From Dehalococcoidia bacterium (GTDB taxonomy: Bacteria; Chloroflexota; Dehalococcoidia; Lucifugimonadales; UBA3495): DNA of 64,000 nucleotides. Under the pieces are notes generated by a model. That model was not told the origin of the DNA, did no database searches, and worked only from the letters and a program-made list of their open reading frames with translations. The position numbers were made by a program, and so were the translations under genes. Shown in pieces: positions 32,193-46,769 of this stretch; position 1 is the first letter of the stretch, and every line of letters starts with the position of its first letter. The DNA is taken from NCBI GenBank assembly GCA_022825745.1, contig JAJDWF010000085.1, positions 1,783-65,782 on the forward strand. Direction: 5' to 3'.

Positions 32193-32269
32193 TGGTGCCG
32201 AGGGGCGGATTCGAACCACCGACACCGGCATTTTCAGTGCCGTGCTCTACCAGGCTGAGCTACCTCGGC
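32193..32269 (-). tRNA. tRNA-Phe (GAA anticodon), CCA encoded
   Basis: The reverse complement folds as a cloverleaf: GCCGAGG acceptor stem, anticodon loop CUGAAAA, T-arm GGTGG-TTCGAAT-CCGCC, 3' CCA. Confidence 0.9.
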
Positions 32270-42843: not shown

Positions 42844-43572
42844 CTAATTTTCGTCGTCCTGGGGGATGACCTGGCGGAGGATGGCTTCTTCGCTGAGCCC
42901 GGCGGCCTCGCTGTGCACTTCCGGTGTGTCGGCGATGAGCAGGTCGGGATCTATGGCCGCCGGAACCTTTTCCGGTTTGTGGTCGGCATGGGTGAGGATG
43001 TTGTGGGTGATGACGACCAGGGCCAGAGCGGTGAGGCCGAGCATCACATCCAGGCCGCGGTGGTGTATGACTTGGTTCAGGGCAAGCATCACTCCGTAGC
43101 CGAAGAAGATGCCGATGGAGGAGCGGAACACGGAACGGCGGAACAGCAGGACGAAGATGATGCCAACGATTATGCCGATCAGTACGAACCAGTTCAGGTA
43201 GCCCAGCGACACGCCCACCAGCACCACCATACCGTCTCCGCCCTTGAATCCGGTGAAGATGCTCTTCCAGTGGCCGGCGATGGCGGCGGCGCCGGCCACC
43301 AGGCCGAGCAGCTCGTGCTGTCCGAACATGGAGGCGACGTACACGGCGGCCGCGCCCTTCAGGACGTCGCAAGCGAATACCATCATGCCGCGACGGCGTC
43401 CGACGTGCCAGAAGACGTTGGCAGTGCCGGCTCGCCGGCTGCCGGTGGCGAAAATGTCCACGCCCTTCCAGCGGGCCACAAGGTAGGCAAACGGGATACT
43501 GCCAAGCAGGTAGCCGACCAACGCCGCCGCCAGGATGCGGGTTATCAGGGGGGCGAAGTCGGCAAAAGGCAT
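42844..43572 (-). CDS. plsY: PlsY-family glycerol-3-phosphate acyltransferase homologue with divergent motif 1 and a C-terminal extension
   Basis: YLLGSIPFAYLVARWKGVDI..TGSRRAGTANV resembles the PlsY N-terminus. ATG at 43572 is preferred over TTG at 43587. Confidence 0.75.
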   Translation of the reverse strand: MPFADFAPLITRILAAALVGYLLGSIPFAYLVARWKGVDIFATGSRRAGTANVFWHVGRRRGMMVFACDVLKGAAAVYVASMFGQHELLGLVAGAAAIAGHWKSIFTGFKGGDGMVVLVGVSLGYLNWFVLIGIIVGIIFVLLFRRSVFRSSIGIFFGYGVMLALNQVIHHRGLDVMLGLTALALVVITHNILTHADHKPEKVPAAIDPDLLIADTPEVHSEAAGLSEEAILRQVIPQDDEN

Positions 43573-43642
43573 ATGGTCAAGTCGCAATTAGGACGAATTT
43601 AGAAATTGGTAAAGGATGATACCACAGCGCTTCGTACCGGGT

Positions 43643-44470
43643 TTATTCAGGCTTGTGAGCGACGTACAGCCAGTAGCCGACTTCACCACGCCGGACCAGC
43701 TGTTCTACGCGCTCCAGCAGCCCTGGACCGAACTCAACCAGGTCGCCAGCGACGGGCGGCGCAGAATGCGCAAGGCTGCCCCAGATCGTCATTTTGCCGC
43801 GCAGTTCGGATAACAGTTCCAGTACCTCGCCCGACAAGTCGGCCCGATCGGTTACGGTGAAACCACCGGCTGCCAGGAGGTCCGGGTAACCGTCGGCGGG
43901 CAAAGCGTCGGTGAGGCAAAGCATCATGCCCACGGTTCCGTCCAACTCGGGCGGCAGGCTGCCAGGTTCAACGGTTACGTCGGAAAGGCCGATGACTCCG
44001 CCGGGCCGCAGCAGCCGGTAAACCTCGGCGATTGCGGCGGACTTGTCGGCGAACAGGCTGGTGGCGCATTCGATGATGACGGCGTCGAACGCGCCGGTGC
44101 GGAACGGCGGCATTTCCGCGTCACCGCGAACAAAACCCACGTTAGCCGGTATGGGTTCGCTGAGAGCGCGCTGACGGGAAGCTACGGCGGCCTCTGGGCC
44201 AAGTTCCAGGCCGGTTACGTGGCAGCGGAACACGCGGGATATTGCAGTGGCGCCGGTCCCCAGGCCGCAGGCCAGATCCAGAACGCGCCAGCCGGGTTGT
44301 ATTCCCATGGCGCGGCCCAGACGGTTGGTGGCGCGGAGGCCGCCGGGGTGCAGGCTGTCGCCAAGGATGAGCCGCGCAAACTCCGAGGAGTACAGGTCGG
44401 CGCAGCAGATTTTGGCGGAGTAGGTGGAGAGCATCCGGCAGCTACTCTCACACCTGCCCATTCCCATCAA
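43643..44470 (-). CDS. Class I SAM-dependent methyltransferase with an N-terminal vicinal-Cys (CC) motif
   Basis: ICCADLY...LGDSLHPGG...VLDLACGLGTGA. The start is uncertain (TTG at 44470, ATG at 44467, 44461 or 44434). The longest form overlaps the radical SAM stop by 23 nt. Confidence 0.75.
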   Translation of the reverse strand: MMGMGRCESSCRMLSTYSAKICCADLYSSEFARLILGDSLHPGGLRATNRLGRAMGIQPGWRVLDLACGLGTGATAISRVFRCHVTGLELGPEAAVASRQRALSEPIPANVGFVRGDAEMPPFRTGAFDAVIIECATSLFADKSAAIAEVYRLLRPGGVIGLSDVTVEPGSLPPELDGTVGMMLCLTDALPADGYPDLLAAGGFTVTDRADLSGEVLELLSELRGKMTIWGSLAHSAPPVAGDLVEFGPGLLERVEQLVRRGEVGYWLYVAHKPE

Positions 44471-45908
44471 GGGAGAGAGCTTTAATTCTATGGCGGCCCT
44501 GCTGCTGGATAAGTTGTTCGCGCACCTGCTCGCGGTAGCCGACGGAGTTGTAGGCGCAGAAGGGTATGGCGCGGCCGTCGGGCGTCAGGATGCCGACGCA
44601 GCACTTCATCACCTGCTTGACGTTAAACGTCCAGGCGTCCAGGAAGTCCTTGATGGCGATCTGGAAAATGTGGTCCTTGAGATGGTTGATCTCATAGGGC
44701 AGGTCCAATCCGGGTCCGCAGGCGCACTCGAACTGGCTGGCAGTGGTTTCCGTGCCGGCCACGGCGGACGCGGACCACAGGCCTTCCAGCGCGGTCTGAA
44801 TGTCCACGGCGTTGGGCGGCTTCGGCAATGCGCGGTTCGTGATGTAGTCCAGGTACTGGTCAATGTCCAGGAGGCGAGGTAAGGGCGTTACGTTGTCGCC
44901 GTCCACGAAAAGGTAGGAATTGACCTGGCAGGTGGGGAAACAGCATGGGACGGGTACGAAGTCCTCCAGGACGAAACGGCCGTCGGTCTGATCGACGATG
45001 CCGTGGATGATGTCCGGGATGGTGACCCGGGTCATCGGGTCAAACTCGATGTGCCGGCCGACGTGGGTGACGGGCTGGAACACGACGCCACGGACGGCGG
45101 GGTGCTTGAGTCCAAACTCGACGATGGGTCCGACCTCGTCGGTGTTCACGTCGCGCTCGATTGCGGCGACGAGGACGGCGGTCATGCCGGCATCCGCGAG
45201 GCGGTCAAGGGCGCGCATCTTGGTTTCCAGCAACGGTTCGCCGCGTATGGTGCGATAGGTTTCCTCGCGCAGTGCGTCGAACTGGAAATAAACGACGGGA
45301 TTGAGGGCAGCCATCCGGGACAAGAATTTGTCATCGTGGGCGAGTCGCACGCCGTTGGTGTTGATCATCACCTGGCGAATGCCCCGGTCTTTGGCGGCCT
45401 GAATCATCTCGGGCAGTTGCGGGTGGATGGTGGGTTCCCCGCCGCTGAACTGGACCACCTCGGGGTCACCCTCGATTTCGATGAATCGATCAAGCATGGA
45501 CTCAACCTGTTCCAGGGTGAGGCTGTAGCCGATGCCAGCGTCGGCGAAACAGACAGGACAGTCCAGGTTGCAGCCGGTGTTAACCTCGATGAGGGCCAGG
45601 CAGATGTGCTGCTTGTGCTCAGGGCAGAGCCCGCAGTCCAGGGGGCAGCCGTTCTCAACCTCTGTGCTGAAATCCAGGGGGATGGTGCCGGGCTTGTTGA
45701 AACGCACGCTGCCGACGTACATCTCGGCGTCAGAACTGATGATGCCTTCAAACCAGCCATGCTCGGGACAGCGCTTCCGCATATAGACCTTGTTGTCGCG
45801 GATGATTACCTGCGCGTCGATGACCGCCTTGCATTCCGGGCAAATGGAGCGGGTGAGCTCGTGAAATATGAAATCGGCGTCCTGCTTGGTATGGCTAGTT
45901 GTGGCCAA
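44448..45908 (-). CDS. Radical SAM enzyme, MJ0619 / Tes (GDGT-MAS)-like architecture
   Basis: N-terminal CxxC...CxxH (C23, C26, C47, H50), then CPLDCGLC (C88/92/95) and CNLDCPVC (C113/117/120), both CX3CX2C. C-terminal Cys clusters are present. TTG start with AAGGAG RBS inside the upstream gene. Confidence 0.8.
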   Translation of the reverse strand: MATTSHTKQDADFIFHELTRSICPECKAVIDAQVIIRDNKVYMRKRCPEHGWFEGIISSDAEMYVGSVRFNKPGTIPLDFSTEVENGCPLDCGLCPEHKQHICLALIEVNTGCNLDCPVCFADAGIGYSLTLEQVESMLDRFIEIEGDPEVVQFSGGEPTIHPQLPEMIQAAKDRGIRQVMINTNGVRLAHDDKFLSRMAALNPVVYFQFDALREETYRTIRGEPLLETKMRALDRLADAGMTAVLVAAIERDVNTDEVGPIVEFGLKHPAVRGVVFQPVTHVGRHIEFDPMTRVTIPDIIHGIVDQTDGRFVLEDFVPVPCCFPTCQVNSYLFVDGDNVTPLPRLLDIDQYLDYITNRALPKPPNAVDIQTALEGLWSASAVAGTETTASQFECACGPGLDLPYEINHLKDHIFQIAIKDFLDAWTFNVKQVMKCCVGILTPDGRAIPFCAYNSVGYREQVREQLIQQQGRHRIKALSLDGNGQV

Positions 45909-46728
45909 CTGAGGATACTCCTTGAATTGTTGTTAGTAGTCTTTCGCGCATAATGCCCACCGCCTCCGGGTTGTTGTCAATCAGCGTAAACTCCCGCCCC
46001 TCCCGCTCGGCAGCCTCGCCCAACGTCCCGCTGCCGGCGAAGAAATCCAGCACGCGGTCGCCGGGGTTGGAATGTACTCGGACGATGCGGCTGATGATGT
46101 GCAGGGGTTTCTGGGTGGCGTAGCCGGTTTTCTCCTTGCCGGTTACGATGGTGCGCCACCAGACGTCCGTAGGGGTTTTGCCGCGAGCGGCTTTTTCGGG
46201 GCCGACCAATCCGGGAGCCAGGTAGGGGATGCGGTCGATGGCGTCGTAGTTGAAGGTGTAGTTGTTCGGATCTTTCGCGTACCACAGGATGTTGTCGTGC
46301 TTGGCCGGCCAACGGGTTTTGGGGCGCCCGCCGTAATCGTAGGCCCAGATGATTTCGTTGATGAAGGAATCCCGGCCAAAGATTTGGTCCAGCATCACCT
46401 TACAATAATGCACTTCACGGTAATCGATGTGGAAGAACAGGCTGCCATGGTCGTCCAGCACTCGGTATGCTTCCGCCATGCGGGGCCACAGGAAGCCGAT
46501 GTATTCGTCGAAGTTGTCGGCGTAGCGGCTGTTGCCGACTATCTCCGTGAGATAGCGGCGTCCCTGAAAGCCCGTGCGGTCGCCGTTGGCGTCGGGCGTG
46601 ACCCTGATCCGCGTGCGGGACTGGGGCTTGCCGGTATTGAACGGCGGGTCAACGTAGATCAGCTGAAACGCGCCATCGGGCAGCGTGGGCAGGACATCGA
46701 GATTGTCGCCAAGTATAATTTCGCCCAT
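45895..46728 (-). CDS. Beta-class N6-adenine/N4-cytosine DNA methyltransferase (orphan)
   Basis: Motif IV DPPF near the N-terminus (LIYVDPPFNTG) and motif I FFAGSGT near the C-terminus. No endonuclease gene is adjacent. Confidence 0.85.
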   Translation of the reverse strand: MGEIILGDNLDVLPTLPDGAFQLIYVDPPFNTGKPQSRTRIRVTPDANGDRTGFQGRRYLTEIVGNSRYADNFDEYIGFLWPRMAEAYRVLDDHGSLFFHIDYREVHYCKVMLDQIFGRDSFINEIIWAYDYGGRPKTRWPAKHDNILWYAKDPNNYTFNYDAIDRIPYLAPGLVGPEKAARGKTPTDVWWRTIVTGKEKTGYATQKPLHIISRIVRVHSNPGDRVLDFFAGSGTLGEAAEREGREFTLIDNNPEAVGIMRERLLTTIQGVSSVGHN

Positions 46729-46769
46729 TGTGAGCCTCCGGCAGTGGGGGCATTATACAGGTGATTGAC

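Follow-up and report, generated by a model that had tools for sequence, protein, structure and literature searches.

A coupled radical SAM-methyltransferase gene pair of Dehalococcoidia and other phyla, apparently a third clade beside Tes and TrsS in the GDGT-MAS superfamily

The radical S-adenosylmethionine (SAM) enzymes closest to the protein treated in this work are the lipid synthase GDGT-MAS (Tes), which captures the substrate radical on a sulfur of its C-terminal cluster before a second radical makes the carbon-carbon bond (PMC9433317; PMC13459092), and TrsS, listed solely as a radical SAM selenoprotein (PMC13188914). Tail coupling in bacteria has been proven for another enzyme, Mss (PMC13159169), and bacterial homologues of Tes are known from bioinformatic detection only (PMC8941075; PMC10087280; PMC13459092), so that a preliminary description of the DNA studied here, which treated them as candidates awaiting experiment, agrees with the literature (PMC8941075, PMC13459092). 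We analysed a stretch of 64,000 nucleotides from a Dehalococcoidia bacterium (GenBank assembly GCA_022825745.1, contig JAJDWF010000085.1, positions 1,783 to 65,782 of the forward strand), called the window throughout, in which a radical SAM gene is followed on the minus strand by the gene of a cysteine-rich methyltransferase. The conserved unit is this translationally coupled two-gene module, whose genes have been inherited jointly in at least six bacterial phyla and in some Thaumarchaeota, and by sequence comparison the pair appears to parallel TrsS and its methyltransferase DVU_1556, beside Tes, as a third clade of the GDGT-MAS superfamily. The preliminary description had called the locus an undescribed system, which holds insofar as no paper was found describing this clade or its methyltransferase partner and the scores lie below both family cut-offs, and does not hold insofar as NCBIfam already names the parallel TrsS and DVU_1556 pair. 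TrsS is said to have been named in Haft & Tolstoy 2025 (mSystems); in our literature search nothing was found on DVU_1555, DVU_1556 and DVU_1557.

The two genes of the module are the following.

44448-45908, minus strand: radical SAM gene (core gene 1), 486 aa, TTG start at 45908, domains PF23545 and PF04055
43643-44434, minus strand: methyltransferase gene (core gene 2), 263 aa, soluble class I SAM enzyme, cysteine-rich; the longest open reading frame (ORF) reaches back to TTG 44470 (275 aa)

As most homologues of the methyltransferase are about 263 aa long and begin at the equivalent of M13, its likely start is ATG 44434, 13 nt past the radical SAM stop. The overlap of up to 23 nt that had been suggested between the two genes is found only for the longest ORF (TTG 44470 against the radical SAM stop TGA 44450-44448), and with the likely ATG there is none.

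In Pfam the radical SAM protein is composed of the HMPTM zinc ribbon (PF23545) and the radical SAM domain (PF04055), and it matches the GDGT-MAS of Methanocaldococcus jannaschii (7TOL) with E = 9e-85 in phmmer. Its AlphaFold2 model, with a predicted local distance difference test score (pLDDT) of 81 and a shallow alignment behind it, matches 7TOM/7TOL in Foldseek at template modelling (TM) scores of 0.76-0.78 with 32% identity (for 7TOM, TM 0.78 and E = 8e-39), the second-best fold being MoaA at TM ~0.36-0.39. The alignment stayed shallow because a third homologue search, with a diverse profile, gave mostly the same Dehalococcoidia clade again. The phmmer and Foldseek matches bear out the earlier assignment of the protein to the MJ0619/GDGT-MAS structural family. 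Along the protein we located the following sites.

45759-45842, minus strand: rubredoxin-type site C23-X2-C26-X20-C47-X2-H50, with the same spacing as C9X2C12X20C33X2H36 of GDGT-MAS (PMC9433317)
45549-45647, minus strand: N-terminal auxiliary [4Fe-4S] cluster motif C88-X3-C92-X2-C95 (with His98/His101), then the radical SAM motif C113-X3-C117-X2-C120
44928-44945, minus strand: P-C322-C323-F-P-T-C327 motif, in which C327 aligns with the single Cys of Tes (HQHC)
44718-44726, minus strand: C395-A-C397 loop, a CxC/CxxC/CC pair kept in the window's clade and in the TrsS clade, absent from the Tes clade
44649-44651, minus strand: Lys420, at the position of Met439 of GDGT-MAS (IAIKDFLD vs ISCMHFMD)
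44556-44603, minus strand: C436-C437...C451 (KCC...PFC), conserved ligands of the C-terminal cluster

In the alignment all four metallocofactor sites of GDGT-MAS are retained, the second line of the list corresponding to C73/C77/C80 plus His and to the CX3CX2C motif of that enzyme (PMC9433317), and the C-terminal ligands being C327, C436/C437 and C451. The surroundings of the C-terminal cluster differ. Met439 is the labile ligand of that [4Fe-4S] cluster in GDGT-MAS (PMC9433317) and belongs to an MH motif in the Tes clade, whereas K, Q, R or E stands there across the window's clade, with one exception (P0252). The insert of about 20 residues that precedes the C327 site in Tes is missing from the window protein, and a cysteine upstream of C327 is common to TrsS (C-X4-C) and unconserved in the Tes clade. 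Within the window's clade the motif reads P-C-C-x-P-x-C.

The set searched for radical SAM homologues comprised 1.84 billion representative proteins and gave 751 clusters at E < 1e-30. On the NCBIfam models the window protein scores 365.3 bits for TrsS (NF045646, cut-off 490) and 340.6 bits for Tes (NF045702, cut-off 450), while representatives of the Tes clade reach 480-638 bits on the Tes model and those of the TrsS clade 635-698 bits on the TrsS model. Of the 25 NCBIfam matches listed, all except those related to Tes and TrsS (TrsS, Tes, intein-containing Tes) lie at or below 62 bits, and no ArsS or ArsL model is among them. In a rough neighbour-joining (NJ) tree the protein falls in a clade apart from both the Tes and the TrsS clades. 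Taken together, these profile scores, the tree and the motifs point to a third, unnamed clade of the GDGT-MAS/Tes-TrsS superfamily; the profile search and phylogeny thus uphold the superfamily proposed for the protein, and at the same time place it below both the Tes and TrsS cut-offs and on its own NJ branch. Two peculiarities of single homologues may be added. The top one, P0001 (572 aa, 1051 bits), has a best BLASTP local alignment covering 57% of the query at 81% identity and, lying on a 5-kb contig, may be a frameshifted or mis-assembled gene; another is labelled by the Joint Genome Institute (JGI) "7,8-dihydro-6-hydroxymethylpterin dimethyltransferase", a name to which the family cut-offs give no support.

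A scan with one genome per species yielded 80 loci, 77 of them with enough downstream sequence, and the wider set for the clade comprised 88 loci. The 80 loci cover Dehalococcoidia, Anaerolineae, Ktedonobacteria, Chloroflexia, Thermomicrobiales, Limnocylindria, Dormibacterota, Acidobacteriota, Actinomycetota, Armatimonadota and two Thaumarchaeota, and include the cultured Ktedonobacteria Dictyobacter alpinus, Ktedonobacteria bacterium brp13 and Ktedonosporobacter rubrisoli. At 70 of the 77 loci the radical SAM gene is followed immediately, in the same orientation, by the methyltransferase gene, whose KxCC motif begins a median of 30 nt past the radical SAM stop. As a control we took 80 metagenome loci of the true Tes clade, and in none of the 65 with enough sequence was this methyltransferase present. 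Occasionally the two partners are fused: in an Actinomycetes metagenome-assembled genome (MAG; CAWAGI010000009.1, L082:7905-11387) one ORF of 1160 aa joins the radical SAM protein, the methyltransferase and a CMD/AhpD-like domain, and on the TrsS side P0322 is a single methyltransferase-TrsS fusion protein (697.8 bits for TrsS, 248.2 bits for DVU_1556). A sister genome of the former (L084) has the same three parts as separate genes, with an Lgt-like gene upstream.

Where the methyltransferase is missing, at seven loci, the radical SAM gene always has an Lgt-like gene next to it; in five of these loci the radical SAM protein is 54-60% identical to that of the window and has the same motifs, and in the other two (L038, L040) it is 44% identical with variant motifs. 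In this Lgt-linked variant of Anaerolineae we also noticed a conserved membrane protein of about 143 aa, without any Pfam match, encoded between the Lgt-like and radical SAM genes (L024:7392-7823, L034:1276-1710, L037:7518-7949, L062:7536-7889). In the Thaumarchaeota, represented by MAGs of ammonia-oxidising Nitrososphaera type, a bacterial-type pair is followed by a Thioredoxin_3 gene (L079:1408-3769, L087:1-2466), and the radical SAM protein is 45% identical to that of the window. Provided that these contigs are correctly binned, this suggests transfer of the pair between domains.

The methyltransferase matches Methyltransf_11, Methyltransf_25 and Methyltransf_31 in Pfam, and its best family is DVU_1556 (NF045667), at 121.9 bits against a cut-off of 155. 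Within the window's family the invariant cysteines are C22/C23, C83, C135 and C185 (numbering of the 275-aa form; in the 263-aa protein the first two become C10/C11 and the last two C123 and C173), and the motifs KxCC, EC and C(I/L)xDA hold in methyltransferases from Acidobacteriota, Actinomycetota, Chloroflexota, Armatimonadota and Thaumarchaeota.

44402-44407, minus strand: invariant CC pair of the methyltransferase (in AKxCCADLY), in a flexible N-terminal segment

The CC motif pointed out in the preliminary description is accordingly invariant and N-terminal in the alignment. Residues 1-14 have pLDDT below 50, and the 48 N-terminal residues, including the CC peptide, gave no match in the PDB. 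For the C-terminal half the best PDB match is the arsenite methyltransferase 5EVJ, a weak local one (E = 3e-6), in which C135 and C185, invariant across phyla, align with the cysteines of SNCVINL and GECLAGAL. These two we take to be the As(III)-binding pair of ArsM, equivalent to C174/C224 of CmArsM. On the ArsM model itself (NF008823 / PRK11873) the protein reaches 68.5 bits against a cut-off of 263, so that it is best viewed, as far as sequence goes, as ArsM-like at two aligned cysteines, with extra N-terminal cysteines, and not as a member of the ArsM family. JGI labels some homologues "arsenite methyltransferase" (P0213, P0217 and P0066 are cited for their JGI labels), again unsupported by the family cut-offs.

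One-to-one adjacency, translational coupling and occasional fusion would also be expected of an enzyme and its maturase, the radical SAM protein modifying the methyltransferase itself, e.g. at the flexible KxCCADLY peptide, with no substrate shared by the two; it fits this explanation that the CC peptide is among the most conserved segments though predicted to be disordered. We regard it as very unlikely, as at seven loci the radical SAM gene lacks the methyltransferase and is accompanied by the gene of an Lgt-like membrane protein, and the sole characterised relative acts on lipids, the hydrophobic C-terminal domain being retained in our model.

For the gene neighbourhood we counted genes within 2.5 kb of the radical SAM gene at the 80 loci.

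Class I FAD pyridine-nucleotide disulfide oxidoreductase (MerA-like, 360-383 bits, below cut-off): 15 of 80 loci, often directly upstream
Lgt-like protein: 9 of 80 loci
Major facilitator superfamily (MFS) transporter: 8 of 80 loci
VKOR: 6 of 80 loci
DUF3179: 5 of 80 loci
Extracytoplasmic function (ECF) sigma factor: 5 of 80 loci, with NrsF in 2
Thioredoxin_3: 4 of 80 loci
DsbA-like protein: 4 of 80 loci, with DsbD in L049
CMD/AhpD-like protein: 2 of 80 loci
ArsP_1 permease: 2 of 80 loci
AhpC/redoxin: 1 of 80 loci

At least one thiol/disulfide-redox family (the MerA-like oxidoreductase, VKOR, DUF3179, Thioredoxin_3, DsbA-like, CMD/AhpD-like or AhpC) is found near the radical SAM gene at 34 of the 80 loci, and at none of the 80 Tes-clade controls, for which comparable flanks were examined. 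In Ktedonosporobacter rubrisoli and one Chloroflexia MAG (L038:9541-10461, L040:9498-10394) the gene next after the radical SAM gene encodes the ArsP_1 permease (PF03773), and the locus L040 has an AraC-type regulator gene upstream. In two Acidobacteriota loci (L064:5785-7927, L047:6162-7364) an NrsF-type anti-sigma gene immediately precedes the pair, and in L064 the same run contains an ECF sigma factor and an AhpC/redoxin gene. The sigmaF/NrsF system of Caulobacter reportedly responds to heavy-metal stress. The partner domains typical of TrsS (DVU_1551 NTP transferase, AMP-dependent ligase, DUF5714) were absent from all 88 loci of the window's clade in phmmer searches, and fusions with them occur only in the TrsS clade.

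Put side by side, a remodelled cysteine-rich site in the radical SAM protein, a methyltransferase with thiophilic cysteines and neighbouring thiol reductases and permeases make the formation of a carbon-heteroatom bond followed by methyl capping the most economical model. We therefore tentatively propose, at somewhat less than an even chance, that the radical chemistry of this pair yields a carbon-heteroatom bond, to which a methyl cap is added afterwards; the pair is probably not a tail-to-tail lipid coupler. In such a scheme, reductive cleavage of SAM would be followed by hydrogen abstraction at an unactivated sp3 carbon, the substrate being hydrophobic and probably alkyl or lipid-like, and the substrate radical would be trapped on sulfur at the C-terminal auxiliary site, as in GDGT-MAS. 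Since this site looks remodelled, with Lys in place of the labile Met439 and with the added cysteines C322/C323 and C395/C397, the adduct would not be resolved by a second lipid radical into a carbon-carbon bond. It might instead be resolved as C-S, or as C-Se or C-As where the cysteines hold a thiophilic metalloid. The methyltransferase would then grip the soft centre through its ArsM-like cysteine pair and the N-terminal CC and add the methyl cap, while in many genomes disulfide reductases, thioredoxin-fold, VKOR or AhpD-like proteins would re-reduce the cysteines and a permease would export the product.

Several observations weigh against this proposal. The additional cysteines in the radical SAM protein may be no more than alternative ligands of its clusters. 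The folds that Foldseek places nearest to that of the methyltransferase are those of RebM, AtmM, MitM, SpnF and PEAMT-type enzymes, and as ArsM is not among the top 50 matches, the likeness to ArsM rests on the two aligned cysteines and the weak local match (E = 3e-6). The context control was run with bacterial queries and the Tes loci are presumed to be mostly archaeal, so that matches in the control may be undercounted. The window's own lineage has no thiol-redox gene beside the pair, the nearest glutaredoxin in relatives being ~3.6 kb off. Finally, genes of lipid enzymes do occur nearby, namely Lgt-like ones at 9 loci, that of a CDP-alcohol transferase at one and, in the window, the PlsY-like gene; a neighbouring clade also has an Lgt-rSAM fusion. 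Given these, purely lipid carbon-carbon chemistry is possible.

The same cysteines and neighbours could be read as a strict organo-metalloid pathway, in which an ArsM-type methyltransferase acts on As(III), Sb, Se, Te or Hg, the radical SAM enzyme makes the carbon-metalloid bond like ArsS or ArsL, and the product, detoxified or bioactive, is exported. The two ArsM cysteines are retained, 50 residues apart as in ArsM, JGI calls some homologues arsenite methyltransferase, the AhpD-like fusions parallel named ArsM/AhpD selenoproteins, and the neighbours include ArsP_1, Thioredoxin_3, MerA-like reductase and MFS genes, with ECF sigma/NrsF at two loci. For radical addition to As(III), ArsL provides a precedent among radical SAM enzymes (bioRxiv 10.1101/2024.02.01.577332). 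Nevertheless we consider such a pathway unlikely: the methyltransferase scores 68.5 against 263 bits on the ArsM model, with ArsM outside its top 50 structural matches, no cluster of ArsR, Acr3 or ArsC genes emerged among the neighbours, and the pair sits in a housekeeping syntenic block, with radical SAM proteins ~80% identical between relatives of the window's lineage, which resembles a core function rather than accessory resistance. The alternative in the preliminary description, a radical SAM enzyme with a Cys-pair methyltransferase, thus fits better than its lipid reading as far as a thiophilic centre is concerned, and gives way where membership in the ArsM family is implied.

The preliminary description had presented the pair as part of a tight cluster of four genes, and all four minus-strand ORFs are indeed present at the coordinates given there, each with a clear family assignment. 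The remaining features of the cluster are as follows.

45895-46728, minus strand: DNA methylase gene, 277 aa, PF01555 at 153.6 bits, an orphan beta-class N6/N4 DNA methyltransferase
45918-45923, minus strand: AAGGAG ribosome-binding site of the radical SAM gene, within the 3' end of the DNA methylase ORF, 9 nt from TTG 45908
43588-43642, minus strand: spacer between the methyltransferase and the PlsY-like gene, 55 nt, 44% G+C
42844-43587, minus strand: gene of a PlsY-family membrane protein, 247 aa, PF02660 at 106 bits
42808-42841, plus strand: terminator-like hairpin where the PlsY-like and TPR genes converge, at which the transcription unit probably ends

On the sequence the DNA methylase stop (TAG, 45897-45895) overlaps the radical SAM start (TTG, 45908) by 14 nt, just as described, and the ribosome-binding site AAGGAG is likewise seen inside the DNA methylase gene (45923-45918, 9 nt before the TTG). 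The only RNA gene that Rfam and ARAGORN gave in the window, a tRNA-Phe (GAA) at 32193-32269 on the minus strand, is distant from the cluster.

The DNA methylase (PF01555, 153.6 bits against a cut-off of 26.7) has DPPFNTG near its N-terminus and homologues in phages and bacteria. Among the 88 loci its homologues are found at three (L013, L015 and L021), the closest relatives, where ORFs of about 200-240 aa separate it from the radical SAM gene. Pfam gave nothing significant for these ORFs, three being without any match and that of L015 having a sub-threshold match to CP12 only. They are absent from the window, and their loss, a recent deletion, would have created the overlap of 14 nt at its junction. 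What lies between the radical SAM gene and the divergent CoA-transferase gene (46729-46760 in the window) is an insertion-prone slot; elsewhere it contains an insertion sequence (IS) element (HTH + DDE_3; L007, 5266-6380) or a Cu-oxidase (multicopper oxidase; L008, 5192-6298). The DNA methylase looks like a lineage-specific restriction-modification remnant outside the module.

The PlsY-like protein meets the PF02660 domain model at 106 bits and scores 87.9 bits on TIGR00023, below the equivalog cut-off of 137.2. Its gene is adjacent, on the same strand, at 13 of the 88 loci, plus a partial one in L004, all of them Dehalococcoidia of the window's lineage; the spacer, 53-98 nt long in the nearest relatives, widens to 212-480 nt in those further removed. 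The gap of 55 nt noted earlier in the window has the length then given and 44% G+C rather than the ~36% claimed. When it was scanned for promoter-like and terminator-like sites none was found, nor was any of the scans for ribosome-binding sites, promoters and terminators decisive there; co-transcription of the PlsY-like gene is therefore possible in this genome. Close relatives share the order CoA-transferase (divergent), radical SAM, methyltransferase and PlsY-like genes, then TPR-like, glutaredoxin, recA and recX genes and a second PlsY paralogue, none of them having the DNA methylase, and in the PlsY-adjacent lineage a larger block of ~15 kb (gyrB ... recA) is syntenic. The second PlsY paralogue lies ~4-5 kb downstream, next to PHP and YmdB genes, at the following positions.

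L001:15890-16675, second PlsY paralogue
L006:14329-15093, second PlsY paralogue
L007:13797-14471, second PlsY paralogue
L008:13988-14662, second PlsY paralogue

Both paralogues of the related genomes score 80-97 bits, under the PlsY equivalog cut-off. A tblastn search of the whole 64 kb of the window gave neither the second paralogue nor recA; the sequence that follows the TPR gene has thus been rearranged.

Hence the four-gene neighbourhood is conserved only in part: the radical SAM and methyltransferase pair holds (70/77), and the DNA methylase (3/88) and the PlsY-like gene (13/88, in one lineage) do not. We rejected the four-gene operon as one functional system, since the DNA methylase occurs at 3 of 88 loci, the slot is variable and the overlap is a deletion junction. 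PlsY as a general member of the module was rejected as well, its adjacency being confined to one syntenic Dehalococcoidia lineage; it is a lineage-specific neighbour that may be co-transcribed here.

These lipid-enzyme genes bear on the function first proposed for the cluster, a bacterial tetraether or membrane-spanning-lipid synthase that couples two tails like Tes, with the methyltransferase adding branches and the PlsY paralogue supplying the glycerolipid. Homology to GDGT-MAS, the four metal sites and the same fold are in keeping with it, as are the PlsY-like gene 55 nt downstream here (53-98 nt in the closest relatives), the Lgt-like genes at 9 loci, the Lgt-rSAM fusion P0265 in a neighbouring clade, the CDP-alcohol phosphatidyltransferase gene after the pair in L032 and the ability of GDGT-MAS to bind ester phospholipids (PMC13274423). 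Yet the Tes score stays at 340.6 of the required 450 bits, Met439 and the 20-residue insert are absent, and true Tes loci have neither the methyltransferase (0/65) nor thiol-redox neighbours (0/80), so that tail coupling with methyl branching is unlikely to be the pathway of this pair. The PlsY adjacency is seen only in one lineage, where ~15 kb is syntenic anyway, and it is Mss and not Tes that has been proven to couple tails in bacteria (PMC13159169). Nor does the methyltransferase suit the branch-adding role given to it: it is a class I enzyme with an ArsM-like cysteine pair, the wrong type for saturated lipid tails and not of the cyclopropane- or branch-forming kind, CMAS not reaching E = 0.01 for it in Pfam, and its invariant cysteines would have no role in carbon methylation. 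On balance we find a tetraether synthase quite unlikely.

The Lgt-like, PlsY-like and CDP-alcohol-transferase neighbours nevertheless keep a lipid substrate plausible, and this leads to a more specific idea, in our estimate a long shot: the pair may be a synthase of heteroatom-tailed lipids, in which a chain-end radical of an acyl or alkyl membrane lipid would be coupled to a cysteine-held sulfur or metalloid and then methylated, giving omega-methylthio or dimethylarsinoyl-type products. Which enzyme makes the terminal C-As bond of arsenic-containing fatty acids and hydrocarbons is, to our knowledge, not known. Such a synthase, if real, would supply the source of that bond in arsenolipids and would explain why lipid enzymes appear alongside ArsP_1, Thioredoxin_3 and MerA-like reductase genes as neighbours.

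The proposal that the pair forms a carbon-heteroatom bond and caps it has consequences for how its homologues are counted. Tes homologues were reported in 111 Chloroflexota MAGs of one study and are used as indicators of the potential for branched glycerol dialkyl glycerol tetraethers (brGDGT) and other membrane-spanning lipids (PMC11868695). The bacterial "Tes homologues" of the present clade are probably not tetraether synthases. If the Chloroflexota/Acidobacteriota/Actinomycetota clade is a methyltransferase-coupled, remodelled enzyme, such counts overstate the number of tetraether producers, which would affect source assignment for brGDGT palaeoclimate proxies; likewise, the partner methyltransferase mislabelled as arsenite methyltransferase could inflate environmental arsM counts. 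The pair, found in at least six bacterial phyla and in Thaumarchaeota, is one of the more widespread radical SAM systems without a known substrate, and its cultured carriers, Dictyobacter alpinus and Ktedonobacteria bacterium brp13 for the pair and Ktedonosporobacter rubrisoli for the Lgt-linked variant, make it testable.

Among the known systems, Mss is likewise a radical SAM enzyme, acting on lipid tails by a postulated auxiliary-cluster-dependent mechanism; by the description of its authors it is only remotely related to Tes, and no methyltransferase partner is described (PMC13159169). With ArsM (5EVJ, 4FR0) and the ArsS/ArsM and ArsL/ArsM pairs it has in common the two cysteines 50 apart, further N-terminal cysteines and an adjacent radical SAM gene; it differs in the ArsM score (68.5 vs 263 bits), in a fold nearer to RebM, AtmM, MitM and PEAMT, in a radical SAM partner of Tes type and in that the window's methyltransferase (263 aa) is without the ArsM C-terminal domain. 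We rejected the methyltransferase as a member of ArsM, as both the curated cut-off and the fold fail. With Tes/GDGT-MAS the radical SAM protein shares the fold (TM 0.76-0.78), C-X2-C-X20-C-X2-H, the N-terminal cluster motif, CX3CX2C and the cysteines of the C-terminal cluster, whereas it scores 340.6 against 450 bits, has Lys for Met439, is missing ~20 residues ahead of the C-terminal cluster Cys and, with its clade, has extra C-X4-C and CxC pairs, a methyltransferase partner and thiol-redox neighbours; Tes membership was rejected, the score being below the cut-off and the motifs failing. TrsS and DVU_1556 membership of the pair was rejected too, both curated cut-offs being missed (490 and 155) and the tree branch being separate. 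TrsS keeps Met at the 439 position where the window's clade mostly has K/Q/R/E, the methyltransferase of that clade has an N-terminal CC where one aligned TrsS-fused example has a single Cys, and the DVU_1551 NTP transferase, AMP-dependent ligase and DUF5714 are absent from its 88 loci. Still, TrsS and DVU_1556 are the best-scoring families for both window proteins (365.3 and 121.9 bits), and they share with the pair the coupling of a radical SAM enzyme to a methyltransferase, sometimes fused (P0322), the C-X4-C and CxC/CC motifs and the equivalents of C135/C185.

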